The notes beneath the pieces were generated by a model, which saw only the letters and a list, made by a program, of their open reading frames with translations, did not search any database and had not been told where the DNA came from. Source: an uncultured Rhodothermales bacterium (GTDB lineage: Bacteria > Bacteroidota > Rhodothermia > Rhodothermales > VXPQ01). Taken from it: 19,339 nt of DNA. Made by a program: the position numbers and the translations under genes. The stretch is from assembly GCA_964487555.1 (NCBI GenBank), contig CAZART010000036.1:23091-42429 (forward strand), written 5' to 3'. This document shows, piece after piece, positions 2,328 through 18,457 of the stretch (its first letter is position 1; each line of letters starts with the position of its first letter).

Positions 2328-2711
2328 CTACAACCCGGATCGCCGCAGCGCCTCAAGGAGAAGCCAGCTGAGTCGTTCCGTCGTTTCGTCATCCACTGAT
2401 CTCACCTTTACGTGGCGCGTGTTCTTTCCGCTGCCTTCGATTCGCAGCCCGTCACGTCGGACGTCTGCCACATGGTGAACGTACAGCTTGCAGTGGTCAA
2501 GAGCAGGCTGGATGCCGCAGACGACATGGTTCGGCCCTCCGCGACTATAATGCGCATTGGCGACGGAGAGACCTCCGTAGATGTTCTCATTAAAATCCGG
2601 CATCGGCTCGCGGATCATCGTCCGCAAGGATTCCGCCGTCGCTTGTACTGGGGCGTTGAAGGGCGCTATCAGCTCCTCGAACGTGGTGGGCTTCTCGCTA
2701 TGCGTCGCCAT
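2328..2711 (-). CDS. DUF1801 (YdhG-like) domain protein
   Basis: 127 aa. Pattern FEELIAPF...AESLRTMIRE...ENIYGGLSV...HVVCGIQP...KLYVHHV...GSGKNTRHVKVRS...LSWLLLEA matches my memory of PF08818. Start overlaps the flotillin stop by 14 nt (translational coupling). Confidence 0.65.
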   Translation of the reverse strand: MATHSEKPTTFEELIAPFNAPVQATAESLRTMIREPMPDFNENIYGGLSVANAHYSRGGPNHVVCGIQPALDHCKLYVHHVADVRRDGLRIEGSGKNTRHVKVRSVDDETTERLSWLLLEALRRSGL

Positions 2712-4008
2712 GCAAGCCCTTCTTGCCGCTGGGAGGCGTCTCGACGTCCAGCACGTCCCCGTCTTTGCCGCTCATGGAGATGGTTTCTTTCTGTTCGTGG
2801 GCTCGGCGCAGCATACCGGCAATATCGACGCCGGTGGAAGCTTTCAAGCTTTCGAGAAGGGCCGGTGTGGCGCCGGCGATTTGATTGAATACGGCAGGCA
2901 CGCCCTGTCCGGCGCCGCCCCCGTCCACGACGGTCAGTTTGTCGATCTTGAGGTTGTCGACCGTCTTGATGACCTCCTTGAGAATGTCGGGCAGCATCTG
3001 GATGAGGAAGAGGCGTTCGGCGTCGGGTCCGGCCTGCTGCCAGAGGGCGAGCTTTTGCTTGAGCACATCGACCTCGGCCTGTCCATCCTCGAAGATGCGG
3101 GCGGCGTTTCCCTTGGCGATTTCTTCCTTTGCCTTGCGCTCGGCTTCGGCTTTCACGATGACCGTGGCGCGTTGGTGCTTCTCGGCAAGCTCGATCTCCT
3201 GGACGGCGAGCTCCTGCTCGGCAATGGCCCGGGCCACGTCCGCGGCGACGGTAACCTTGGCTTCCTCGGCCTCGGACCTGGCGGCGAGTTGTGCTTTGAC
3301 GATGCGAACATCGTTCTCGGCCTCGGCGATCGATTTGTCCGCCCTGGCCTCTGCCACGCGGGCCGATTCTCGCTGGGTGGCCTCCGTGATCTCAGCTGCG
3401 GCGATGATGTGTGCCGTTTGCTGGCGTCCGATGGCGTCCAGATACCCGCGATCGTCTTCCACGCTCTGGATCTTAAACGTATCAAGTTGCAGGCCGAGGG
3501 CCGAGAGGTCGGTGTCCGCCTCCTCGACGAGCTCGCGGGCGAACTTGAGGCGATCCTCATTGACCTCCTCGGGTGAGAGCAGAGCAACTACGCCGCGGAG
3601 ATTTCCTTCGAGCGTTTCTTTGGCAATCAACTGAATCTCTTCGAGGTTCTTACCGAGAAGCCGCTCGACGGCGTTGTTCAACTCGTTTTCCGTAGACGCC
3701 ACTTTTACGTTGGCAATGGCGCGCACCGAGAGGGGGATGCCGCCCTTCGAGTAGGCGTTCTTCACCGTCAAGTCGATCGGGATCGTATTGAGCGAGAGCC
3801 GATCTACCTCTTCTAGAATCGGTATCCGAAAGCCGCGGCCGCCACGGATAACGCGATAACCAAGAGACGAGCCGTCCGTCAGAGCGCGACGCCGGCCGCT
3901 GAAGATCAGCACCTCGTTCGGCTGGCAGATTTTCAGATTCGCCCTTACGATGCCCAGCACCGTCATGAACGCGAGGATGAGTATGCCGGCGATAATAAAA
4001 GCTTCCAT
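2698..4008 (-). CDS. Flotillin-like SPFH/band-7 protein (FloT/YqiK type)
   Basis: 436 aa. N-terminal hydrophobic helix, SPFH core (RGGRGFRIPILEEV..., NAYSKGGIPLSV...), long Ala/Glu-rich coiled-coil (EA repeats), flotillin C-terminal region. Confidence 0.9.
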   Translation of the reverse strand: MEAFIIAGILILAFMTVLGIVRANLKICQPNEVLIFSGRRRALTDGSSLGYRVIRGGRGFRIPILEEVDRLSLNTIPIDLTVKNAYSKGGIPLSVRAIANVKVASTENELNNAVERLLGKNLEEIQLIAKETLEGNLRGVVALLSPEEVNEDRLKFARELVEEADTDLSALGLQLDTFKIQSVEDDRGYLDAIGRQQTAHIIAAAEITEATQRESARVAEARADKSIAEAENDVRIVKAQLAARSEAEEAKVTVAADVARAIAEQELAVQEIELAEKHQRATVIVKAEAERKAKEEIAKGNAARIFEDGQAEVDVLKQKLALWQQAGPDAERLFLIQMLPDILKEVIKTVDNLKIDKLTVVDGGGAGQGVPAVFNQIAGATPALLESLKASTGVDIAGMLRRAHEQKETISMSGKDGDVLDVETPPSGKKGLHGDA

Positions 4009-4077
4009 AGCGGGTTACGGTCTGTCTTCGGTGCTGGAGCAGCTCCGAATGGTGAACGAACGGGCAGCGGGGCTGCC

Positions 4078-4659
4078 CTACTCCGGTTTAACGACTTCGA
4101 CGACGGATCCGTTGACGCGTATCACTACGACTTCGTCTCCGGGATTGAAAGCGTCCATCGTCTGATTTTCGAATGCGCGGGCCACGAGATGCAGGCTCTG
4201 ACCCCGGGTGACCAGGCTGATCTTACCGCGCCGGTTGCCCTTGAAAGGTATGAGAACCTTGCCTGTCATTCCCTTCAATTCTTTCGTCGATACATCGCTT
4301 GATACGTGCTCGTATCCGACGCGCTTTATGAGATAATTGCCGCCCAGACCGACGAGAGTTCCAACGAGTGCGGCGAGCACTGCGGTAAAGGGTTCTCCGG
4401 TGCCGGCCAGCGAAAGCGCAAGCCCGGTCAAGCCGAAAAACGCGGCGAACAAGAACAGAGCGCGTACCGAGAACAGATCCACTAGATCGGTCCCGGCGGC
4501 GTCGGCAACGGTATTCACCTCACCCTCCAGGTTCACATCGGCATCGGCATCGACGTCGAGGTCTACATCGGCATCGGAATCGCCGCCCCCGAAGAGAGAC
4601 AGAAGAACGAAGAATCCACCTACAAGAAGGCAGATCAGATAGAGGGTCGTCATAGGCAC
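4078..4659 (-). CDS. NfeD-family membrane protein (YqiJ/YuaF-like flotillin partner)
   Basis: 193 aa. N-terminal TM, second TM pair, C-terminal OB-fold beta-barrel (GMTGKVLIPFKGNRRGKISL...GDEVVVIRVNGSVVEV). Immediately upstream of flotillin, the classic nfeD-floT/yqiJK arrangement. Contains an acidic D/V repeat linker (DSDADVDLDVDADADVNLEGEV). Confidence 0.85.
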   Translation of the reverse strand: MPMTTLYLICLLVGGFFVLLSLFGGGDSDADVDLDVDADADVNLEGEVNTVADAAGTDLVDLFSVRALFLFAAFFGLTGLALSLAGTGEPFTAVLAALVGTLVGLGGNYLIKRVGYEHVSSDVSTKELKGMTGKVLIPFKGNRRGKISLVTRGQSLHLVARAFENQTMDAFNPGDEVVVIRVNGSVVEVVKPE

Positions 4660-4907
4660 CTGCGAGTAGATTGAACGGGAGGTACCACACCATCATGATA
4701 ACTGCCCCGGTCGCGGGGGTCAACGGGTGCACACGCTACTTTCTGTTTGAAGCCTCGGAACTTCTTGGTCGAAGCCTCACGTGCGCGCTCGTCCGTTTGG
4801 AGCGGCCAGGGTGCTTGTCTACGGAAAAACCCTCATTTCGTTGCGTTTCGTCCGACTATCGCCTGAACCACGATGTTCGATTCAGCACCTGATCGGGGGT
4901 TGCGCCT

Positions 4908-4942
4908 GGTGCATCTGTGCGTATACCGTGCATCTGTGCGTA
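4908..4942. repeat. Tandem direct repeat, 2 x ~19 bp (GTGCATCTGTGCGTATACC / GTGCATCTGTGCGTATTCG)
   Basis: Seen directly in the sequence, in the noncoding region upstream of nfeD. Confidence 0.8.
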
Positions 4943-5021
4943 TTCGATAGACACGAACGAGCTGCGCCATGCTGCGAGGCTTATCGGTGGCTACGGCCGG
5001 TGCGTACAATTGCCGGGCGCC

Positions 5022-5049
5022 AATTGAGGCACGGCATATTGAGGCACGG
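5022..5049. repeat. Tandem direct repeat, 2 x 13 bp ATTGAGGCACGGC with 15-bp period
   Basis: Seen directly in the sequence: attgaggcacggc at attgaggcacggc. Confidence 0.8.
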
Positions 5050-5224
5050 CGGAGCCGTTGTCTAGCCGTCGCTCAGCGGCATCATGTTCTCGAAGATCCA
5101 GTCCGGACAGCTGTCTCGATCGGCAAAATACTTGCTCGCGCGCGGTGGAACCAGAAGATCGGAGATTATCGCCGCCTCGCCGGCACGGAATTGAGCCAGG
5201 CGTTTTGCGACGTGGTCCGCCGTC

Positions 5225-5926
5225 TCACGATTTGAATAGGTGCGGGTTTCGCTGGATGAATTTGTGGATCCAGTGTTCAATGAACGAGCGCTTTCCCTGG
5301 CGCATATACCGCCAGCCGAGGGCGCTGATGACGAGTGCGCCGGCCGCATCTACAATTAGATCCCACATCGTGTCCGCAAGGCCTGACGGGTCGCCGAGCA
5401 TCGGTTTCTGCATGTTCGTGCCGAACATGCGATCCATTCCGAATTCGAACATCTCCCACACGGAGCCGACGGAAACCGCAAATGCGAAAGCGAAGATGGC
5501 AACGAAGCGCGGGCGCATGTGCAGTTCGATGCGCTCGCTTTCGTTGAGTATGTAGACGAGCAGAAAACCCAGAATTCCGAGGAGGAGGCCGGAGACGGCG
5601 TGCAGTGCCATGTCCCACCACCAGATCCGCTCGTAATAGCTCTGGATCTCCCCGAGAAACACCGAGGCAAAAACGAAGGCGATCGTGAGCACCTGGAATT
5701 CGGCGGGGATATCGACGGTCTTCCAACGGCGGAGAAACATGGGGACGAGCGTGCCTCCCATAATCATCAAGACGAGGAAGACGTTTAGCCACTGCCTGTT
5801 GAGGAGCACCAGCACGAGCTCACCTGCCAGGATGACCTGCAGGATGAAGACCGTGCTCCTGTGGATTCGCGCGACGAGGCCGGTTTCTACCCCGTACCCC
5901 GGCGTCGAGGGCATCTCGCTCATCAA
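5225..5926 (-). CDS. Polytopic inner-membrane protein of unknown function (about 6 TM helices; possibly DUF2238/YjdF-like)
   Basis: 233 aa, multiple hydrophobic helices, conserved-looking EMFEFGMDRMFGTNMQKPMLGDPSGLADTMWDLIVD segment. Starts 16 nt after the DGPF gene stop. The overlapping ORF 5277..5792 (Arg-rich, different frame) is rejected. Confidence 0.6.
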   Translation of the reverse strand: MMSEMPSTPGYGVETGLVARIHRSTVFILQVILAGELVLVLLNRQWLNVFLVLMIMGGTLVPMFLRRWKTVDIPAEFQVLTIAFVFASVFLGEIQSYYERIWWWDMALHAVSGLLLGILGFLLVYILNESERIELHMRPRFVAIFAFAFAVSVGSVWEMFEFGMDRMFGTNMQKPMLGDPSGLADTMWDLIVDAAGALVISALGWRYMRQGKRSFIEHWIHKFIQRNPHLFKS

Positions 5927-5942
5927 GAACTGCGTTCGTGGC

Positions 5943-6275
5943 TCAGGGCTTCAGCTGTCGGACGGGTCTTACCTCGATACTGCCTACCCGCGCCGGGGGA
6001 ATGTTTGACGCCACGCGGATGGCGTCGTTCAGGTCGCGGGCGTCGATGAGATAAAACCCGGCGAGCTGCTCCTTCGTTTCGGCGAAGGGGCCGTCGGTAA
6101 TCGACACTTTTCCGCTGCGGACGCGCACAGTCGTAGCCGTCTGCACCGATTCTAGTGCCTCGGCGGCGATGCGCTGACCGCTGTCGTCGAGCATCTGACC
6201 GAAGGCCATACATTCGGCGTCCGGGACGTCGGTCAGCGTGGCTTCATCCATGTAGACCAGGCAAAGGTATTTCAT
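5943..6275 (-). CDS. YciI-like / DGPF-domain protein (YCII-related, PF03795)
   Basis: The track ORF 5943..6521 has a junk Arg/Pro-rich N-terminus. The internal ATG at 6273-6275 gives a 110-aa protein MKYLCLVYMDEATL...ITDGPFAETKEQLAGFYLIDARDLNDAI... carrying the diagnostic DGPF motif. This family is a known genomic partner of ECF42 sigma factors. Confidence 0.8.
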   Translation of the reverse strand: MKYLCLVYMDEATLTDVPDAECMAFGQMLDDSGQRIAAEALESVQTATTVRVRSGKVSITDGPFAETKEQLAGFYLIDARDLNDAIRVASNIPPARVGSIEVRPVRQLKP

Positions 6276-6310
6276 CGTATTCGGTGGAAAATATGGAGGG
6301 GACCGTTCAC

Positions 6311-6342
6311 TATTAGTCGGATAGACAGGCCGGAAATCGACA
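6311..6342 (-). promoter_or_regulatory. Candidate ECF42-type promoter (TGTCGA -35-like, 16 nt, CGAC -10-like) about 40 nt upstream of the DGPF gene ATG
   Basis: The minus strand reads TGTCGA(6342-6337)-TTTCCGGCCTGTCTAT-CCGAC. From memory of the Mascher-lab ECF classification, the ECF42 target motif is TGTCGA in the -35 region and CG(A/T)C in the -10 region. The motif is recalled, not looked up. Confidence 0.35.
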
Positions 6343-6367
6343 ACGGGACTACGCCTTTGAAGGTTCT

Positions 6368-7831
6368 CTAGCTGCGGGCTCCGATATCGACCGCAATCGA
6401 ACGCCACTTTCCTTGATTGAAGCGCAGCGCGCTCAACGCGCACCGCGTGATGTGGCCGAGGAGAATGGCGATCCAGATGTCGATCGGATCGAGGACGGAC
6501 ACCTGTTGAATGATGAAGCACATGCCCAGGGGAATGACGATCTGCGAGACGATCGAGATATAAAGCGGACTCCTCGTGTCGCCGGTTCCCTGAAGCCCGC
6601 CGGTGTACGTGAGCGCAACGGCGATGAAGAGTCCCGATACGCTGAGAATCCGCAGGAGCTGTACTCCGATCTCCACCACGAGCGGCTCATTCATACCGAA
6701 CGCGGCGAGCAGCTGTTCGGGCAGGAAGAGGAAGAAGGCTCCAACGCCCGTAGCAGTGACGACGCCGATACGCGCAGCAACGTGCACGGCTTTTTCGGCT
6801 CGGTCCGCATTGCCGGCGCCGAGGTTCTGGCCTGCAACCGTCGCCGCCGCACCCAGCAGACCGACGGACGTCCATGTGATGAACGAGAAAAGCTGAGTGT
6901 ACGAAACCGCGTAGGCGGCCTGGGCTGCGGCGCTATCTGCGAGCGAGCCGACGAATGCGAGCAGGAACACGCCGCCGACGTTCATGGCGATCCCCTGAAT
7001 GCCGGTGGGCAGCCCAAATCGAAACAGGGCGCGGATGATGCCCCAGTCAGGGCCGAAGCGGCCGCCGCGCGGAAAGGCAACGACCCATCCACCCGTCCAC
7101 AGTTTGATGAGAGCATAGACGGCGACCGCGCCGCCGGCGACGACGGTGCCCATGGCGGCGCCCGTCGTCCCGAACGCGGGAACAGGGCCGAGTCCTGGAA
7201 TGAGGATGATGTTGAGGAGTAGATTCAGCAGCGTGAGGGCGATGCCGAGGCGAAGCGGCGTTTTCGCGTCGCCGGCCGATCGAAGCGCGCCTCCGAGCAT
7301 GAAGAACACGAGCATGCCGCTGCTGAACAGAAACATCGTTCGCAGATAGGGCAGGGCTTCCGTCTGCACTTCCGGGGCGGCATTCACGAGATCGAGAAGC
7401 CACGGTGCGGCGAAGTACCCGAGGGGAGCAAATATTCCCAGCGAGAGGCCCATGGCCGTCAGAAATGCCTGATAGACGGTACGATCCGTCTTCTCCACGT
7501 CACCCGCGCCCACGAAGCGCGCGACGAGGACGCTCATTCCCGTGAAGAGGGAGGTAATGAAGACGATGACGACCAGGAAGATCTGCCAGCTTACGCCGAT
7601 GGCTGCATTTCCGGTGAACCCGACGTAGTGGCCGACGAGGGCATGGTCGACCAGGCCCTGCAGTCCGCCTATCGCATTTTGCAGCATCGTAGGCCAGGCG
7701 ATCTTCCAGACCGCAGGTAGCAAGGGGCCTTCCACAATCGAGCGGTCGTACCGGGGCCGCGTCGGTGGGGGAGGCGGTATGAGCGGCTCGGCACCCGCTG
7801 CGACAGGGGACGACGCGGCGTTATCTTTCAT
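6368..7831 (-). CDS. MATE-family multidrug/toxin efflux transporter (NorM/DinF-like), 12 TM
   Basis: 487 aa. Duplicated 6-TM MATE architecture with typical WPTMLQN..., GLGP..., GLPTGIQ segments. About 35-aa Pro-rich N-terminal extension. The ATG at 7829-7831 overlaps the stop of the upstream small ORF (ATGA). Confidence 0.9.
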   Translation of the reverse strand: MKDNAASSPVAAGAEPLIPPPPPTRPRYDRSIVEGPLLPAVWKIAWPTMLQNAIGGLQGLVDHALVGHYVGFTGNAAIGVSWQIFLVVIVFITSLFTGMSVLVARFVGAGDVEKTDRTVYQAFLTAMGLSLGIFAPLGYFAAPWLLDLVNAAPEVQTEALPYLRTMFLFSSGMLVFFMLGGALRSAGDAKTPLRLGIALTLLNLLLNIILIPGLGPVPAFGTTGAAMGTVVAGGAVAVYALIKLWTGGWVVAFPRGGRFGPDWGIIRALFRFGLPTGIQGIAMNVGGVFLLAFVGSLADSAAAQAAYAVSYTQLFSFITWTSVGLLGAAATVAGQNLGAGNADRAEKAVHVAARIGVVTATGVGAFFLFLPEQLLAAFGMNEPLVVEIGVQLLRILSVSGLFIAVALTYTGGLQGTGDTRSPLYISIVSQIVIPLGMCFIIQQVSVLDPIDIWIAILLGHITRCALSALRFNQGKWRSIAVDIGARS

Positions 7832-8013
7832 TTATGGTCGTTTTCCGGTCGTGGCCGATTCGATTCCCCAATACGCCGATGGTGCGTTTTCATGAATTCG
7901 CGCCAGGTACCGTTCTCGTCGAGGGTGCCCGCGTAGATCCAGAGGTGGGTCATCATGGATCCAATCCGCATCCCAACGGAACGATCCTTCTGCGGATCGA
8001 AGCCGAGGGTCAT
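7828..8013 (-). CDS. Small hypothetical protein (61 aa from ATG 8011-8013; alternatively 71 aa from ATG 8041-8043), translationally coupled to the MATE gene
   Basis: Only the C-terminal part of track ORF 7828..8310 looks coding (MTLGFDPQKDRSVGMRIGSMMTHLWIYAGTLDENGTWREFMKTH...). GC3 is about 70-80% in this frame by my count, there is a GAAGG 7 nt upstream of the ATG, and the stop TGA overlaps the MATE ATG. The upstream Arg-rich part of the ORF is junk. No family recognised. Confidence 0.3.
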   Translation of the reverse strand: MTLGFDPQKDRSVGMRIGSMMTHLWIYAGTLDENGTWREFMKTHHRRIGESNRPRPENDHK

Positions 8014-8331
8014 TACCTTCGACGCATCGCCTCCCCCCGGCATGCTGCCTCGCCCCTTCGGCGGCGAGCCACCGTCCGCCAAGCAAACGTACGGTCTCCG
8101 TGCCTTCGATCTTGTCGTCGGAAAGAGCTTTCTCGGTCGTCGAAGCGCCTTCGAATCTCCAATCGCCGACGAGTTGTTGCAGCCTCTAATGTTCGTGACC
8201 GGGCCGGGCGTACACGACGGCGTGTTCGTGCTGTTTCTGATTCGTTTCCATCGTGGTGATCTTTGATTATGGGGGCGTCTGTACCAGATTGTCGACCGAT
8301 TGCGTGGCAAATCGACGATGCGTGGTGCTTT

Positions 8332-9603
8332 TCATGGTGACAATTCTTCAATCCGGCGCTTCAGGAAACGGCGCTCCGGCTCCTGCCGGGTGAGTTCGAG
8401 GGCTTGTTGGTACGAGGCCCGTGCCTCGGCAGAGCGCCCGAGCCGGCGGCATAAATCGGCCCGTGCCGAATGGGCAAGATAGTAGTCCGAAAGTTCGCCC
8501 CTCGCCAGAATCTCGTCGATGAGATAGAGACCGGCGGCAGCACCATCGCGCATGGCGACCGCCACGGCGCGGTTCAGAGCGATGACCGGGGAGGGGTTCA
8601 CCTGAAGGAGGACGTCATACAGGCCGACAATCTGGTTCCAGTCCGTAGCGTCGGGCGCGGGAGAATCGGCATGGACGGCGGCGATCGCCGCCTGCAGTGA
8701 ATACGGTCCGATGGGACCGGTACGCATGGCCTGCTCGACCAGCGCCGTGCCCTCGGCAATCAGTTCGCTATTCCAGAGGGAACGGTCCTGCTCATTCAAT
8801 AAGATCAAGTCGCCGTTCTCGGTGGACCTCGCAGTCCGGCGCGATTCATGCAGGAGCATCAGCGCCAGAAGCCCCATCACCTCGGGCTCCGGCAGCAGCT
8901 CCACGAGCAGGCGGCCCAGGTAAACGGCCTCCTCGGAAAGATCGGAACGCGTCACGGCGGTACCGGCTGAAGCGGAGTACCCCTCGTTGAATACGAGGTA
9001 GACCACGTGAAGGACGGTATCAAGCCGCTCAGGCAGATCGCGGTGCGCGGGCACTTCATATGGAATACGAGCGTCGCGGATTTTGCGTTTGGCGCGTACG
9101 ATTCGCTGCGCGAGGGTGGAGGGGCTGGTCAGGTAGGCGCGAGCGATTTCTTCCGTCGTGAGACCGCAGACTTCGCGAAGTGTAAGAGCGATCTGCGCGT
9201 CGGCGGGAAGGGCCGGATGACAGCAGGTGAAGATCAGACGGAGTCGGTCGTCTTTGAACTCCTCACCTTCCCACCCGGCAGCATCTTCGGAGGCTTCATA
9301 GAGCCGATCGGCGATTTCCACGAGGGCTGCGTCGAACCGTCCTCTGCGTCGGAGGCGGTCAATGGCACGGAATCGACCCGTCGACACCAGCCATGCCCGC
9401 GGATTCGTGGGCACTCCGCCGGCGGGCCACTGCTCGACGGCGGCGGCGAAGGCATCCTGCAAGGCATCCTCGGCGAGATCAAAGTCGCCGAGAAGGCGGA
9501 TGAGCGTGGCGAGAACGCGTCTCGATTCGGAGCGATACACCTCGTCCACGATGCGCCGGGCATCGGAGCTGTCGGAAGGCATGGGGGAGGACCTATCGAA
9601 CAT
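8332..9603 (-). CDS. ECF sigma factor with C-terminal TPR-like extension (COG4941 / ECF42 group)
   Basis: Sigma-70 region 2 (DEVYRSESRRVLATLIRLLGDFDLAEDALQDAF..WP) and region 4 (LTLREVCGLTTEEIARAYLTSPSTLAQRIVRAKRKI), followed by a ~230-aa helical/TPR-like C-terminal domain. 424 aa from the ATG at 9601-9603. The track ORF extends to 9687 only via a TTG start and a low-complexity leader. No anti-sigma factor follows, as expected for ECF42, and a DGPF protein lies downstream. Confidence 0.8.
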   Translation of the reverse strand: MFDRSSPMPSDSSDARRIVDEVYRSESRRVLATLIRLLGDFDLAEDALQDAFAAAVEQWPAGGVPTNPRAWLVSTGRFRAIDRLRRRGRFDAALVEIADRLYEASEDAAGWEGEEFKDDRLRLIFTCCHPALPADAQIALTLREVCGLTTEEIARAYLTSPSTLAQRIVRAKRKIRDARIPYEVPAHRDLPERLDTVLHVVYLVFNEGYSASAGTAVTRSDLSEEAVYLGRLLVELLPEPEVMGLLALMLLHESRRTARSTENGDLILLNEQDRSLWNSELIAEGTALVEQAMRTGPIGPYSLQAAIAAVHADSPAPDATDWNQIVGLYDVLLQVNPSPVIALNRAVAVAMRDGAAAGLYLIDEILARGELSDYYLAHSARADLCRRLGRSAEARASYQQALELTRQEPERRFLKRRIEELSP

Positions 9604-9746
9604 CGTGGCGGACCAACATACGCATCGGTCTCGCGTTCTTCCAAGAAGTGCAGCGTCTCTTCGTGGCGCGGCCGAATCCAAGGGCAACGGTGTGCAAGAC
9701 GTGAGAACGACGAGAAAGGTGCGAGAAGAATGTGAGCGTCAACGGT

Positions 9747-10040
9747 TCAGCGCACCTTTACCACCAAAAATGTCATGTCGTCACACGGCGAGGCCTTGCC
9801 TCGCCAGAGCCGGCGCAGTTGGAGCATCACGATCGACACTGTACCTTCTCGAACGTACGAAGCTTCGAAATCGAAGTAGACAGTGGCGCCGAACGTCATC
9901 AAAAAAGCCGCATAGAAGAGGTTGCTTTGCTGCTCGCGAAGGTACGCGTAGAGGATCAGATGAAGCAGACCGAATCCGAACGGAAGGGCTGTGAAAAACG
10001 CCTGCATGCGGATGAATTTGAAGAGACTCTCAGGGTCCAT
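9747..10040 (-). CDS. Small 2-TM membrane protein of unknown function (97 aa)
   Basis: Internal ATG (10038-10040) of track ORF 9747..10103 gives MDPESLFKFIRMQAFFTALPFGFGLLHLILYAYL...LFYAAFLMTFGATVYF... with two hydrophobic helices. GC3 is about 72% and TTC is strongly preferred over TTT, as in the other genes. Same strand as and directly upstream of the sigma gene. Confidence 0.4.
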   Translation of the reverse strand: MDPESLFKFIRMQAFFTALPFGFGLLHLILYAYLREQQSNLFYAAFLMTFGATVYFDFEASYVREGTVSIVMLQLRRLWRGKASPCDDMTFLVVKVR

Positions 10041-10177
10041 TGTCAGGTCCGAATGGGCGGGCGACGCGTAGAATCGGTGAGTGGTCGATCTTTCTACCCG
10101 CACGCGGTGCTTTTCCGATCTTTATGACTGCATTCACCCGATTTTTCCATCTTGGTTCGCGAATTTGCGGGTCTAGA

Positions 10178-13501: not shown

Positions 13502-13885
13502 TCAGGATGGAAAGAATCGCCCGCCACTTAGAACGCGTTCGACGGCTTCGAGAATCACGTCGGCGTCGCCTTTGCGAACAAACCCGTCGGCTCCGGCCCG
13601 GCGTGCGGGTTCGGTGTACTGCGACTCATGATGGCCCGACACGACGAGGAGGCGAATCCCGGGAGACGTCGCTCGAAGCGACTCGACGAGGCTCAGTCCG
13701 TTCATCCCCGGTAATGAGATATCGATAATAACCATGTCCGGTGCGAGACCGGGAATCTCCTCAAGCGCCTGTTCGGCCGTGGCGACGGCGCCGCATACGT
13801 GCAGCCCACCGATCGTTTCGAAAAAAAGGATGTAGCCCTCTCGTACTTCGTCGTGGTCCTCGACGATATAGACGCACTTATTCAT
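13502..13885 (-). CDS. Single-domain response regulator (CheY-like receiver, no output domain)
   Basis: From ATG 13883-13885: MNKCVYIVEDHDEVREGY...MVIIDISLPGMNGL...LVVSGHHE...GADGFVRKG (acidic pocket, phospho-acceptor Asp in IIDISLPG, conserved Ser and Lys positions). GGAGG Shine-Dalgarno lies inside the kinase 3' end. Start overlaps the kinase stop (ATGAATAA). Confidence 0.85.
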   Translation of the reverse strand: MNKCVYIVEDHDEVREGYILFFETIGGLHVCGAVATAEQALEEIPGLAPDMVIIDISLPGMNGLSLVESLRATSPGIRLLVVSGHHESQYTEPARRAGADGFVRKGDADVILEAVERVLSGGRFFPS

Positions 13886-15233
13886 AAGGCTCCTCGACCG
13901 ATGCGCCGGCAAGTCCGCTTCCCTCCGTATACGGCACGAAAATCGTCACGCGCGTGCCCGAACCCTGAGAAGAGTCGATGTCGAGTCTACCGCCAAAAAG
14001 GCGTAGCCGCTCCGCCACACTGAACAGTCCGAGGCTCGTCTGGTGGTCGTCGGTGGCGCGGACGCCGGCGACGTCGAAGCCCGAGCCCTGGTCCTCGACT
14101 TCGATGGCAAGCGTACCGTCTCCCGTATAAGCGGTAAGTCGACAGGTGGTTACTCCGGAGTGCTTGATGATGTTGAAGAGGAGCTCGCGAACGAGTTGTA
14201 CGAGCAGACCCTGCTCCTCTTTGCCCCTCGTATCGACGTCATCCGCAATCTCGAGCTGCACTTCGAGACCGTACTGCTCGGACATGTGAGATCCCAGCCA
14301 AAAAAGCGCCGTCTTCAATCCTTCGCCCTCGAGAATCGGCGGGTTCAGCTCGATGGACAGCGTGCGTGAAACGTGAATCGCTCGCTGCGCATATGCGCGG
14401 ATGTCTTCGCACTGAGCTACGAGTGCCTGATCGGCCATTTCAGGCTTTTTCCTCAGATCCATGTCCAGCATCTTGAGCCGCATCTCAACGCCGAATAGAA
14501 GCTGCTGCAGATCGTCATGAAGGACGCGGGAGAGGCGGCGGCGCTCCCTCTGTTCGGCAAGCGTAAGGGACCGAGAGAGAGCCTGCACCTGTTCCGTCCG
14601 CATCCGAACACGCTCCTCGAGCGTCTCGTTGAGCTCTGCCAGCCGCGCTCGCTCTTCGGCCACTTGCGAATGAAGCCGCTCGCGCTCCGTCTCGGATGCC
14701 AGAAGGGCTTCGTGTCGTTTCTGCTGCGTCAGGTCCGTCACGACCAGACAAATGGCATTGAGACCGTCGATGTGTGCGGCGGCCCTCGAGAGAAATACGG
14801 GAATCTGCTCGCCGCCGCGCGTCGTAAACTCGAGTTCGCACTTGGCCGCATCCGGCTGCGCGAGAAACGCTCCGAAGCGTTCGGCAGCGGTCTCGTCTAC
14901 GTAACGATGGATATCACTGCCAATCACCTTCTGGATCGGCATGTGAATGATGCGTGCGAATGCCTGATTGCAGTACAGGATCGTGTGATCTTCGGCGAGG
15001 GTGACCGACCCCTCCTTCATCGTCTCGACGAAGACGCGATATGGATGGTCGGCCCCCCGGAGTGTGTACACCTGCGGATCGTCGGGCTCGCCTACGACTA
15101 CGGCATCTATGCTACCGGTGCGGATGGCCTGGAGAATTTCTTCAGCCTCGTTGAGTTGGCTGCGGAGTTCGGCATTCTCCGCCTGGAGAGATTCGATCTC
15201 TGTCGGCAGATCCGGCGATCGATCACGAGGCAT
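13878..15233 (-). CDS. Cytoplasmic sensor histidine kinase: N-terminal coiled-coil, PAS domain, HisKA_3-type dimerisation/H-box, HATPase_c
   Basis: 451 aa, no TM. Coiled-coil (ESLQAENAELRSQLNEAEEIL). PAS-like region (ILYCNQAFARIIHMP...). H-box of NarX/DesK-type kinases (RRRLSRVLHDDLQQLLFGVEM). N-box (ELLFNIIKHSG). G-box (IEVEDQGSGF ... TRVTI). Starts 6 nt after the kaiB2 stop. Confidence 0.85.
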   Translation of the reverse strand: MPRDRSPDLPTEIESLQAENAELRSQLNEAEEILQAIRTGSIDAVVVGEPDDPQVYTLRGADHPYRVFVETMKEGSVTLAEDHTILYCNQAFARIIHMPIQKVIGSDIHRYVDETAAERFGAFLAQPDAAKCELEFTTRGGEQIPVFLSRAAAHIDGLNAICLVVTDLTQQKRHEALLASETERERLHSQVAEERARLAELNETLEERVRMRTEQVQALSRSLTLAEQRERRRLSRVLHDDLQQLLFGVEMRLKMLDMDLRKKPEMADQALVAQCEDIRAYAQRAIHVSRTLSIELNPPILEGEGLKTALFWLGSHMSEQYGLEVQLEIADDVDTRGKEEQGLLVQLVRELLFNIIKHSGVTTCRLTAYTGDGTLAIEVEDQGSGFDVAGVRATDDHQTSLGLFSVAERLRLFGGRLDIDSSQGSGTRVTIFVPYTEGSGLAGASVEEPYE

Positions 15234-15239
15234 GGCGGC

Positions 15240-15545
15240 TCAATTACTCAGGCCCAGACGCTGAATCACGAGTGAGGCGTTCTCAAGAGTGCCGACGAGC
15301 AGGCGAATCGGCGGCGGATTCTCCTTCACGAGCGTGGGCGTCACCACGATCTGAGCCGTGGCGGCCAGTGCCGGCTGCTGATAGATGTCGATTATGTCCA
15401 GCTCATATTGATTCCGGAGGAATGTATCGCAGAGCGCTCGCAGATTTCTGACGGCTTGCATGGAGCGCGGGGTGGTGCCGGCGATGTAAAGTCGAAGCAC
15501 GAATGAGGCCTCCCGTGGCTTCCCTTCGGTAAACGTCTCCTGCAT
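15240..15545 (-). CDS. kaiB: KaiB-family protein, divergent paralog (KaiB2)
   Basis: 101 aa. LRLYIAGTTPRS..A..NL..LC.....YELDIIDIYQQPALAATAQIVVTPTLVKENPPPIR matches the KaiB/thioredoxin-like core. The C-terminal segment (LLVGTLENASLVIQRLGLSN) departs from canonical KaiB. Confidence 0.85.
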   Translation of the reverse strand: MQETFTEGKPREASFVLRLYIAGTTPRSMQAVRNLRALCDTFLRNQYELDIIDIYQQPALAATAQIVVTPTLVKENPPPIRLLVGTLENASLVIQRLGLSN

Positions 15546-15620
15546 ACTCGCTCCTCGTTTGCCGATATCGGATTCTAGTTACGCCGTATTATTGCGCAGC
15601 ATTTTTGGGATCGTGGCTCA

Positions 15621-15947
15621 TTACTCAGGTGGCCGCAGGTCCAGACCTACCAGCACGCGCTCGGTGTTCGAGAGATCGCCGATGATCTTTCGCATCGGCT
15701 CGGGCAGCTTGCGTACCAGCGTGGGGATAGCGAAGATCTGGTCGCCCTGTGCGAGTTGAGGATTTTCGAGCAGGTCCACGATTTCAATTTCGTACCGACC
15801 CGACAAATGTTCCTCGCACAGTCGCTTGAGATTGTCGAATGCCGCGATGCACTTCGGCGTTTGCCCCGCCACATACAGGCGCAGCAGATACGGCTTCGCC
15901 GAAGGCGCCTCGTCAGGAGGTGAGCTGCCGCGTGAAATCTCATTCAT
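15621..15947 (-). CDS. kaiB: KaiB circadian-clock protein homolog (canonical, KaiB1)
   Basis: 108 aa. [83 protein letters not shown] is near-colinear with cyanobacterial KaiB (…LKLYVAGNTPNS…[47 protein letters not shown]). Confidence 0.9.
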
Positions 15948-16003
15948 CGCACATAGGCTTGGTTAACGGGAGGATCACGTCAATTCTTGCTGTCTGGCCG
16001 TTC

Positions 16004-16023
16004 CGTATCCGGTTCAGGATACG
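16004..16023 (-). other. Perfect 7-bp-stem hairpin (CGTATCC-ggttca-GGATACG) in the kaiC-kaiB1 intergenic region
   Basis: Seen directly in the sequence. No U-tract follows on the minus transcript, so it is not an obvious terminator. Confidence 0.5.
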
Positions 16024-16041
16024 TGCGGCGCTGCGCGGCTG

Positions 16042-17505
16042 TCAAACCGGCGACGGAGCAGACGTCTTCCGGGCATCGACGAGCTCCACACCGCGATTCG
16101 TAATTTTCATCTCGCGGACCTGATTAGAGTGCGCCATCCCCCGTGACTTAAGTACGAACAGCGCACGGTTGCGTTCGCCGCCGCTCTCAAGGGCTTGCAG
16201 CAGCAGCCACGTATCCATGAGTGAGGAGATCCCGACGTCCGTCTTCTCCTGCTCGATGCGGCTGCTCGTGAGGCTTGTGAACATGGCGGTGATTTGCCGC
16301 TCCTTCAGAAAGTCGATAAGCCGGGTGAGCGCGGCGCCCGCCTCGTCAATGCTGGAGACGGCCATGAGGTTCGTCACCGGGTCGATTACGACCGCCGATG
16401 GATCTACCTTTTCGACCAGCTTCTGCATGGCGATGAGATGCATCTCGAGGCCATAGAGCTGAGGGCGCCTTGCGTGGATATGAAGGAGGTCCTTTTCCAG
16501 CCAGCGGTCGAGTTGGAGTCCGATCGACAGCATATTGCGAGCGAGCTGCCGGGGCGATTCCTCAAACGCTACATAGAGGCACCGTTCTCCGCGCTGGCAG
16601 GCGGCATTGACGAAGTGGGCTGCCAGGCTTGTTTTTCCCGTGCCTGCCGTTCCTGAGATGAGAACGGAGCTGCCCCGGTAGAAACCCCCGCCCACAAACA
16701 TGTCGTCGAGGCTTGCGACTCCTGTCGAAACCTGATCGGAACTCACGTCGTGGGTGAGTCCGAGCGACGTAATCGGGAGCACCGAGATGCCGTCGTCGTC
16801 AATGAGGAACGGATACTCATTGGTCCCATGGCTGGAGCCGCGATACTTCACAATGCGCATACGCCGCGTTGAGATCTGATTTGCCACGCGATGGTCGAGC
16901 ATAATGACGCAATCCGACACGTACTCCTCGAGACCGTGACGCGTCATGGTGCCGTCGCCTTTCTCGGCCGTGACGATGGCGGTGATTTCGTGCTCGTTGA
17001 GCCATCGAAAGAGGCGGCGCAGCTCGGCGCGAAGAATCAACTCGTTGGATAATCCCGCGAAGAGGGCCTCGATGGTATCGAGTACGACCCGCTTCGCACC
17101 AACCTTCTTTATGGCGAATGATAACCGGACAAATATGCCTTCGAGATCGTAGTCGCCCGTCTCGGCGATTTCGCTTCGTTCGATCCGCACGTGATCGAGC
17201 GCCAGAAGATCGCGCTCGACGAGCTCGTGGAGATTGAATCCGAGCGAAGCGACGTTCTGCGCGAGCTCTTCGCTCGTCTCCTCGAACGTCATGAAGACGC
17301 CCGGCTCTTGGTAGTCGAGCGCCCCGCGCACGAGGAACTGGGCGGCAAAAAGTGTTTTCCCGCAGCCGGGTCCGCCGCATACGAGTGTCGTACGACTGCG
17401 CGGAAGTCCGCCTTTGGTGATCTCATCAAGTCCGTAGATGCCGGTACCAGACTTCAGGACGCCGTTTGGCGATGAACCGGGATCGGAGTTTGGATGTTCG
17501 GCCAT
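16042..17505 (-). CDS. kaiC: KaiC (double RecA-like CI/CII ATPase/autokinase), short C-terminus
   Basis: 487 aa. CI Walker A GGPGCGKT with catalytic TFEET. CII Walker A GTAGTGKT with catalytic AFEES. Phospho-site region TDVGISSLMDT aligns to cyanobacterial TDSHISTITDT (Ser/Ser instead of Ser/Thr). Only ~13 aa follow the last conserved block, so there is no A-loop/KaiA-binding tail. Confidence 0.9.
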   Translation of the reverse strand: MAEHPNSDPGSSPNGVLKSGTGIYGLDEITKGGLPRSRTTLVCGGPGCGKTLFAAQFLVRGALDYQEPGVFMTFEETSEELAQNVASLGFNLHELVERDLLALDHVRIERSEIAETGDYDLEGIFVRLSFAIKKVGAKRVVLDTIEALFAGLSNELILRAELRRLFRWLNEHEITAIVTAEKGDGTMTRHGLEEYVSDCVIMLDHRVANQISTRRMRIVKYRGSSHGTNEYPFLIDDDGISVLPITSLGLTHDVSSDQVSTGVASLDDMFVGGGFYRGSSVLISGTAGTGKTSLAAHFVNAACQRGERCLYVAFEESPRQLARNMLSIGLQLDRWLEKDLLHIHARRPQLYGLEMHLIAMQKLVEKVDPSAVVIDPVTNLMAVSSIDEAGAALTRLIDFLKERQITAMFTSLTSSRIEQEKTDVGISSLMDTWLLLQALESGGERNRALFVLKSRGMAHSNQVREMKITNRGVELVDARKTSAPSPV

Positions 17506-17683: not shown

Positions 17684-18457
17684 TCACAGGCGCTCTCGCA
17701 CCTCGTCCAGATACTTACGGATGCGGCGCGCGTTCACGCCCAGATCTCCACGACCTACGCGCGAGACCGAGCGAATATCAAGAACCGTACGCCCGTTCGC
17801 CGGCGTCAAGCGAACGACGACGTCGTCATCGAACCCGTACCAGAACGTTTCGTCCACCGCTTCAATGCGGCCTGCGGCCGGGTCGGCGTCGACGATGGAC
17901 CATCCCATTTCACGAGCCGCCTCGAGGGCCACCTCGAACGCATGCTCGGGTGGAGCTGCCAGTTGTAGAGGTTCTATCTCGGGGTAAGCTTCCCGCTGCT
18001 GAGCGGCTACTTCCGGGCCGCCGTACTCAGTCGGATTCGGTGCGTCGGCACGGAGCGGTGAGATGGCGACGAAGTCGGGTGGATTTTCAACATCCGTCGT
18101 GATGTCATGAATAGGAGGAAACCGCTGCCCCATGCGCTGTACCTGCCACGGCACGATGAACGTGGCGAGGGCGATCATAACGGCGAGCAGGGCGATCGGA
18201 AATCCCTTTCGAGATGCGCCCGGCCGCGTTCGGTAGAGAGCGATGAGGGAAAGGACGGCGGCGGCGATACCGCCGTAGGCGGCCCAGCGAAGCATGGTGA
18301 ATCCCGTTTGGAAGTGCCACCAATCCCATCGGGTGCCGAACGAAGAGAGGAGTGCGAGGCAGGCCGTCGCGACTGCCAGGAGCGCGACGCCGACGGCGAA
18401 GCGCGAGCGCGGTCGGGCAGATCTGGGAGACAAGGATGCCGAGGCTGGAGATTCCAT
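17684..18457 (-). CDS. DUF1499-family protein, N-terminally membrane anchored
   Basis: 257 aa. Two N-terminal hydrophobic helices. C-terminal motif FWYGFDDDVVVRLTPANGRTVLDIRSVSRVGRGDLGVNARRIRKYL matches my memory of the DUF1499 signature (RSxSRxGxxDxGVNxxR). Confidence 0.6.
   Translation of the reverse strand: MESPASASLSPRSARPRSRFAVGVALLAVATACLALLSSFGTRWDWWHFQTGFTMLRWAAYGGIAAAVLSLIALYRTRPGASRKGFPIALLAVMIALATFIVPWQVQRMGQRFPPIHDITTDVENPPDFVAISPLRADAPNPTEYGGPEVAAQQREAYPEIEPLQLAAPPEHAFEVALEAAREMGWSIVDADPAAGRIEAVDETFWYGFDDDVVVRLTPANGRTVLDIRSVSRVGRGDLGVNARRIRKYLDEVRERL

Follow-up and report, generated by a model that had tools for sequence, protein, structure and literature searches.

A 19,339-nt stretch of contig CAZART010000036.1 from an uncultured Rhodothermales bacterium (the whole stretch is termed the window, and all coordinates refer to it) carries at 5225-9603 a gene array that includes an ECF42-type extracytoplasmic function (ECF) sigma factor, a MATE efflux pump, a YCII/DGPF protein, and a DUF2238 membrane protein. 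The array is probably an ECF42 module with two promoters and with the MATE pump within its regulon. Earlier work has established the sigma group, its YCII partner, and its promoter, whereas the MATE link, drawn from comparisons of gene order and promoters, is apparently new. The searchable literature, outside of which the primary 2018 and 2019 papers on ECF42 lie, yielded no account in which a MATE exporter is a conserved neighbor or target of ECF42.

Five reading frames are present in the array, every one on the minus strand. Along the direction of transcription, the order is the sigma factor, a DUF1579 pseudogene, the MATE gene, a 92-nt gap, the YCII gene, and the DUF2238 membrane gene. Domain calls were made with Pfam and NCBIfam, and structures are AF2 models that were compared with the PDB using Foldseek. 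Compared loci from other assemblies are denoted by L-numbers, where L083 is GCA_964644335.1. The features of the array are:

8332-9582, minus strand: ECF42-type sigma factor, 416 aa (P0001), from Pfam and AF2/Foldseek
8291-8317, minus strand: putative near-canonical ECF42-type promoter, from alignment to the L083 DUF1579 promoter
7828-8251, minus strand: DUF1579 pseudogene, from a partial Pfam match, tblastn, and DNA alignment with L083
6368-7831, minus strand: MATE efflux transporter, 487 aa, from MatE and TIGR00797
6314-6342, minus strand: putative canonical ECF42-type promoter, 10/10 core match
5943-6275, minus strand: YCII/DGPF protein, 110 aa, from PF03795
5225-5923, minus strand: DUF2238/YjdF-family polytopic membrane protein, 232 aa, from a weak PF09997 match

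The sigma factor and its assignment to ECF42

ECF42 is among the most widespread ECF sigma groups. Its members RpoE10 of Sinorhizobium meliloti and ECF-10 of Pseudomonas putida correspond to SMc01150 and PP4553, and SVEN_0747, 4377, and 7131 of Streptomyces venezuelae were reportedly characterized as members by Liu, Pinto and Mascher in 2018. Reviews name S. venezuelae proteins, RpoE10, and ECF-10 as ECF42 proteins and describe the group as having a tetratricopeptide repeat (TPR) extension that is essential for activity and no anti-sigma factor (PMC8999054, PMC7826278, PMC6180224).

The window sigma factor has the same organization. In the 451-aa open reading frame (ORF) at 8332-9687, Pfam detects Sigma70_r2 at residues 51-117 (1.5e-11) and Sigma70_r4_2 at residues 152-203 (1e-10), with no match to region 1 or region 3, and the sigma70-ECF model TIGR02937 scores 48.8 bits against a cut-off of 42.9. 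The gene caller of the source record places the start at 9582 (416 aa), and an alternative start at 9603 gives 423 aa. The C-terminal extension of ~230 aa matches DUF6596 (4e-37) and has sub-threshold TPR matches at residues 404-440 of the 451-aa ORF. In the AF2 model, made with 25 homologues, residues 220-416 are all-helical with a pLDDT above 88, and 10 helices are formed by residues 216-413. The top Foldseek matches in the PDB are all TPR proteins, with weak E-values (~1e-3), and no solved structure covering the extension was found there. Pfam, AF2, and Foldseek agree with the initial annotation, which had described a sigma factor of regions 2 and 4 with a TPR-like extension of ~230 aa.

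The genomic setting was surveyed in 80 species-representative loci, each centered on an orthologue of the window sigma factor. Identity to the window protein is 62-73% in Acidobacteriota, Gemmatimonadota, Planctomycetota, Nitrospirota, and many Pseudomonas, and 62-80% over the orthologues as a whole; Pseudomonas proteins found in a YCII-sigma arrangement are 67-70% identical. A YCII gene lies within 8 kb of the sigma gene in ~72 of the 80 loci. In the window, it is 2 kb downstream on the same strand.

As the initial annotation had also stated, no anti-sigma gene is apparent nearby. Domain matches reveal no candidate among the neighbors, which are an amidohydrolase, a 118-aa ORF, the DUF1579 pseudogene, and the MATE gene, a negative that rests on absent domain matches and is not proof of absence. 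The 118-aa ORF (9747-10103, minus strand) is directly upstream of the sigma gene, has two or three hydrophobic segments, and has no Pfam match. A search for counterparts in L001, L082, and L083 found none, and the interval between the amidohydrolase and sigma genes is ~400 nt longer in the window than in these three loci.

A fused C-terminal regulatory extension in place of an anti-sigma factor is also a trait of ECF41 sigma factors, such as Mycobacterium tuberculosis SigJ and those of Rhodobacter sphaeroides and Bacillus licheniformis, and ECF41 likewise has a small conserved regulon beside the sigma gene. The extensions differ, as that of ECF41 is SnoaL_2/NTF2-like whereas that of the window protein is composed of DUF6596 and TPR helices. 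The NCBIfam SigJ models match only the core of the window sigma factor, at 34 bits against a cut-off of 271.

The window shares with known ECF42 systems the sigma-2 and sigma-4 core, the TPR-containing C-terminal extension of ~200 aa, the lack of an anti-sigma gene, the adjacent YCII/DGPF gene, and a promoter of the form TGTCGR-N17-CGWC. By these likenesses, the sigma factor and its neighbors are very probably a genuine ECF42 module, the identity first proposed for it from the sigma factor and its DGPF neighbor, and one that the YCII neighbors of orthologues and the match to the S. meliloti motif bear out. The assignment stands on architecture, YCII neighbors, and promoter motif. What sets the window apart from known ECF42 systems is that a MATE exporter separates the sigma gene from a YCII gene located downstream, that YCII is followed by a DUF2238 gene, and that a DUF1579 target has decayed.

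Two putative promoters and a decaying DUF1579 gene

RpoE10-dependent promoters of S. meliloti have the form TGTCGG-N17-CGTC (PMC6180224). In the 80 sigma-orthologue loci, 77 TGTCGA hexamers are found no more than 200 nt upstream of the 117 YCII genes, against 11 expected. Of these hexamers, 46 are followed by CGAC at N17, 12 by CGAC at N16, and 2 by CGTC at N17, and the extended consensus is TGTCGA-TTT-...-CCG-WW-CGAC-TA. The motif derived independently from the 80 loci is in agreement with the S. meliloti promoters. The window sigma factor is predicted to recognize TGTCGA-N17-CGAC.

One such site, at 6342-6314 on the minus strand, lies in the 92-nt gap between MATE and YCII and reads TGTCGA-TTTCCGGCCTGTCTATC-CGAC-TA, and 40 nt separate the end of its CGAC from the YCII ATG. 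No other site on that strand of the window reaches a 10/10 core match. Despite divergence of the flanking intergenic DNA, the site is kept in L001, L082, L171, and L173, and over 60 loci have this motif in front of YCII genes.

The gene behind this site, which starts with the ATG at 6275, encodes a YCII protein. The PF03795 search, which had been set as the test that could refute the DGPF call, gave 69.3 bits against a cut-off of 24 (4e-19), and the alignment contains an invariant DGPF-E-KE motif (D61-G62-P63-F64, E66, K68, and E69). The protein is 85-88% identical in L001, L082, and L173. In loci with the same sigma family (L084 3913-7933 and L082 133-3035), arrays of up to four YCII genes are interleaved with glyoxalase/VOC genes and RibD_C, and at one such locus a YCII-glyoxalase fusion is beside an alpha/beta-hydrolase and an SRPBCC protein. 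The glyoxalase/VOC arrays echo the glyoxalase-like RpoE10 targets of S. meliloti.

Next to YCII is the gene for the polytopic membrane protein. Its first annotated distance of 16 nt from the YCII stop applies to a TTG start, and the ATG is 19 nt away. The protein matches PF09997/DUF2238 weakly (20.8 bits against a cut-off of 26.4), and precomputed annotation assigns PF09997 to this exact protein and to all 120 of its best homologues, out of more than 2,400. Identity to the best homologues is 61-82%, and many acidic and aromatic positions are invariant. Its AF2 model has ~6-7 long helices, and Foldseek gave no significant fold match for it in the PDB. The DUF2238 gene is probably co-transcribed with YCII, given its position. 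DUF2238 as a general partner of YCII or ECF42 was considered and rejected, since the homologues in L087-L090 are in unrelated contexts and none of the 80 sigma-centered loci carries one. In L085, a DUF2238 gene is two genes downstream of a MATE orthologue, without YCII, and DUF2238 is absent at this position in L171 and L173. DUF2238 appears to be a lineage-specific passenger of the YCII unit, under the YCII promoter by position only.

The second site, at 8317-8291 on the minus strand, reads cGTCGA-TTTGCCACGCAATCGGT-CGAC-AA and is 39 nt before the ATG of the pseudogene and 460 nt before that of MATE. It aligns with the canonical TGTCGA-N17-CGAC-TA promoter of an intact DUF1579 gene in L083, and the C at its first base is also present in the conserved YCII promoters of L171 and L173. 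A plus-strand TGTCGA-N17-CGAC at 8290-8316 was considered as an antisense promoter into the sigma gene. It was rejected as the primary reading because the element is quasi-palindromic, which explains the plus-strand match, and because the minus-strand version aligns with the L083 DUF1579 promoter and has a T-rich stretch after the -35. Self-complementary GTCGAA-N-TTCGAC elements match both strands at 8291-8317 and in the YCII/FEN-like intergenic regions of L112, L146, L165, L169, and L170. In these five MATE loci, the element is between a YCII gene and a divergent FEN-like-exonuclease-MATE pair, and since the elements match both strands one site could serve both directions.

The reading frame behind the second site is a relic. 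Of the 160-aa ORF at 7828-8310, only residues 86-134 match DUF1579 (PF07617, profile positions 52-99 of 155), and beyond this 49-residue fragment the ORF is arginine-rich, out-of-frame sequence. Three-frame translation places the N-terminal part of DUF1579 in another frame, broken by an in-frame TAG at 8188-8186, and tblastn with the intact DUF1579 proteins of L052 and L060 gives two high-scoring segment pairs in different frames. No intact, single-frame DUF1579 domain of ~155 residues is present in the window. L083, with 80% identity in the sigma factor, has an intact DUF1579 gene of 168 aa that begins 74 nt after the sigma gene and scores 190 bits over positions 1-155. DNA alignment with L083 reveals that the window gene has suffered a change of CGA TGG to TAG AGG, a +1 frameshift near 8058, a loss of ~129 nt (43 codons) near 7920, and the loss of its original stop. 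What is left of the frame overlaps the MATE start at its end, as ATGA. The overlap is as first annotated, and the ORF that had been thought coupled to MATE is a DUF1579 pseudogene rather than a coupled gene.

In L001 and L082, with sigma factors 77-80% identical, no DUF1579 remnant was detected in the 270-nt non-coding gap at that position, and the ORF is absent from L001, L082, L171, and L173. The gene is intact in L083, damaged in the window, and lost in L001 and L082, and therefore three stages are represented: intact, decaying, and gone. The dead gene is now a ~420-nt leader that leads directly into the MATE gene. The locus records ongoing turnover of a regulon, in which a DUF1579 target is lost stepwise while its promoter persists before the next gene.

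It is extremely improbable that the pseudogene is an assembly or sequencing artefact and that DUF1579 is intact in the organism. The contig is metagenome-style without a cultured reference, and single-base frameshifts are common assembly errors, which would favor such an artefact. The lesions, however, are three and independent, including a two-base change and a large deletion, and the independent assemblies of relatives display a later stage in which the gene is wholly lost.

Also highly improbable is a single operon of five functional genes whose promoter precedes the sigma gene and in which the 160-aa ORF is translationally coupled to MATE. The ORFs are indeed all on the same strand with short gaps and a real ATGA overlap, and a scan from the sigma stop through the DUF2238 gene detected no intrinsic terminator, its only terminator-like matches being two weak ones within the DUF2238 coding sequence. 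This arrangement is contradicted by the mostly out-of-frame nature of the ORF, with the rest of its gene in a different frame, and by its absence in the four relatives. The ECF42-type promoters, moreover, are internal, and the motif scan found none upstream of the sigma gene itself, so the initial picture of an array simply headed by the sigma gene does not hold. The lack of an autoregulatory promoter directly upstream of the sigma gene is shared with S. meliloti rpoE10 (PMC6180224; PMC8999054).

Recurrence of the MATE pump with ECF42 systems

The MATE call of the initial annotation is secure. The protein matches MatE (PF01554) in two stretches (2e-47, 161 bits), and with 194 bits it exceeds the TIGR00797 cut-off of 147. 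None of the NCBIfam equivalog models is reached, with SolL at 149 bits of the 780 needed, YeeO at 89 of 465, NorM at 69 of 449, and DinF at 37 of 409. The orthogroup is 71-93% identical across soil bacteria, with named matches in Gemmatimonadaceae, Longimicrobiales, and Thermoanaerobaculia, and homologues in Gemmatimonadota and Acidobacteriota are 76-84% identical. Identity across phyla is unusually high for several proteins of the array, at 62-73% for the sigma factor, 76-84% for the pump, and 61-68% for the DUF2238 protein. Such values are atypical of ECF sigma factors and drug-type efflux pumps and suggest strong constraint or frequent horizontal exchange.

The surroundings of the pump were surveyed in 80 metagenome loci centered on its orthogroup. 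Once dereplicated at a MATE identity of 95%, these loci represent 39 informative lineages. Greedy clustering of ORFs in these loci was noisy, owing to spurious arginine-rich alternative frames, and served only as a guide; key genes were confirmed with Pfam. A sigma factor of full ECF42 architecture is directly upstream of the pump on the same strand in 21 of the 80 loci, representing 11 of the 39 lineages, and a further 12 of the 39 have a YCII gene within 4 kb. The sigma factor linked to MATE in this way is a second one, only 48-54% identical to that of the window, and in most cases one or two YCII genes and an ECF42 promoter lie upstream of it.

This second ECF42 subclade, with the order YCII-YCII-sigma-DoxX-MATE (for example, L093 and L136), carries the same MATE orthogroup at 73-79% identity. 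In common with the window are the ECF42 architecture of its sigma factor, the presence of YCII genes, and the promoter motif. Unlike the window, its YCII genes are upstream of the sigma gene; DoxX, alpha/beta-hydrolase, or MarC genes stand between sigma and MATE; MATE is the last gene of a tightly packed and probably autoregulated operon; and no DUF2238 or DUF1579 gene is present. In L093 and L136, the YCII, sigma, optional alpha/beta-hydrolase, DoxX, and MATE genes abut or overlap, with overlapping stop and start codons in both loci, and therefore form one operon.

Closer to the window, the pump has its own ECF42-type site. A core match of at least 9/10 is found upstream of MATE in 7/7 loci whose MATE is at least 83% identical, against 2/68 of the others, and control searches gave 5/75 on the reverse strand and 1/75 inside the gene. 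Perfect sites occur in L173 and L085, at 42 nt and 54 nt, respectively, ahead of the MATE start codon. Two of the seven promoter-bearing loci have no sigma gene nearby, and L085 has neither a sigma nor a YCII gene within 5 kb. Within this subclade, the order sigma-MATE-YCII is conserved in five lineages, namely the window, L001, L082, L171, and L173. The pump had first been described as inserted between the sigma factor and its DGPF partner; the order is real, but insertion is not the sole reading of what is itself a conserved trio. Taken together, synteny and promoters indicate that the conserved MATE pump is likely a member of the ECF42 regulon.

An alternative that is unlikely but deserves serious weight makes the pump a bystander. 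In this case, MATE would be a conserved housekeeping neighbor that owes its expression to read-through or a sigma-70 promoter, the ECF42-like element in front of it would be a dying relic of the DUF1579 promoter that contributes nothing to pump expression, and only YCII-DUF2238 would be a true target. The exceptional conservation of the pump across phyla fits such a role. A number of observations favor it and weigh against the proposed module. None of the 80 sigma-centered loci carries the MATE or a DUF2238 gene, and in 16 of the 39 informative MATE lineages the ECF42 sigma factor and YCII are both missing from the vicinity, so the pump is not an obligate partner. Core matches of 9/10 are frequent by chance (16 in the window against ~6.6 in shuffles), and because of this the site at 8317-8291 draws its weight from where it lies and from being homologous to the L083 promoter. 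Its counterpart in L001 and L082, the two closest relatives, has CTAC as the -10, a variant seen in 0/77 YCII-proximal sites, and therefore the decay of the pseudogene may extend to the promoter. A sigma-70-like promoter, TCGACA-18-CATAAT (10/12; 8266-8295, minus strand), overlaps the -10 of the element and could drive MATE instead, or could give basal transcription. The proposed module is further weakened by departures of the site from consensus (C for T at the first -35 base and AA for TA after the -10), by the chance that the 11 sigma-linked MATE lineages may share one ancestral arrangement, and by the fact that all statements on transcription are inferred from sequence.

The bystander role is countered by the presence of an ECF42-like site in all seven of the closest loci, including the perfect sites of L173 and L085, where no DUF1579 gene exists to account for it. 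It is also countered by the second ECF42 subclade, in which the pump is within overlapping-gene operons in at least 8 sigma lineages (<90% identity). A regulon that includes the MATE pump is the preferred reading on these grounds. The recurrence of MATE with ECF42-DGPF pairs, which the initial annotation had suggested looking for, is borne out on the side of the pump, in 11 of the 39 lineages and in the promoters, but not in the sigma-centered loci.

A bolder reading is possible but rather doubtful. This specific MATE orthogroup of soil bacteria (Gemmatimonadota, Acidobacteriota-like) might be a core member of the ECF42 regulon that has been wired differently at least twice, inside the sigma operon in one subclade and under its own ECF42 promoter in another. 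ECF42, YCII/DGPF, DoxX or DUF2238, and the pump might then constitute a module to sense, bind or modify, and export a small molecule.

Proposed function and genomic surroundings

To our knowledge, the signal that induces ECF42, the role of the TPR extension, and the function of the YCII/DGPF targets are still unknown. In the mechanism proposed for the window, a cytoplasmic cue would act through the C-terminal extension of the sigma factor, and the activated sigma factor would then guide RNA polymerase to both promoters. The canonical promoter would give a YCII-DUF2238 transcript. The second promoter would probably give a MATE transcript by way of the ~420-nt pseudogene leader, and as no terminator was detected, this transcript probably reads on into YCII.

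The companion genes of related ECF42 loci encode DoxX, MarC, alpha/beta-hydrolase, glyoxalase/VOC, and SRPBCC proteins and RibD_C, and a knockout of P. putida ECF-10 has altered resistance to several antibiotic classes (PMC4613276). Together, these suggest that the ECF42 module is a small-molecule or xenobiotic stress response. Speculatively, the pump would export a compound that the YCII protein would bind, modify, or sense. The functional tie between MATE and the ECF42/DGPF pair proposed in the initial annotation has gained comparative support from synteny and promoters, whereas the tie of DGPF to export stays speculation. A conserved exporter linked to the regulon by a promoter narrows the hypotheses to a transportable small molecule. 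Under the bolder reading of a module that senses, binds or modifies, and exports, a first functional handle on YCII/DGPF proteins and on the ECF42 signal would be gained.

Pfam identifies the flanks of the array as an Amidohydro_3 enzyme upstream, on the opposite strand, and an NfeD-like and SPFH/flotillin pair downstream. This pair (2698-4659, minus strand), in which the NfeD-like membrane gene is upstream of the SPFH/flotillin-like gene, is conserved and keeps its synteny in L001 and L082; the SPFH/flotillin-like gene is 92% identical in relatives. Scanning the whole window with Rfam and for tRNAs gave no matches. The 565 nt at 4660-5224, between the DUF2238 and NfeD-like genes, are without a convincing gene. 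At this position, L001 and L082 have two conserved genes without Pfam matches, one of 311-321 aa and one of 500-552 aa, and a search of the window detected no remnants of them.

Further along the window, at 17684-18457 on the minus strand, is a gene for a DUF1499 protein whose first 100 residues weakly match NrsF, a negative regulator of sigma F (1.2e-4, sub-threshold). It is 8 kb from the ECF42 gene, and nothing connects the two. A cluster at 13878-17505, all on the minus strand, comprises a KaiC homologue (16042-17505, KaiC domain 7e-116), KaiB (15240-15545), and a PAS and HisKA_3 histidine kinase (13878-15233). By its composition, the cluster is a timing or stress module of the KaiBC type, present here in a soil bacterium outside the cyanobacteria.

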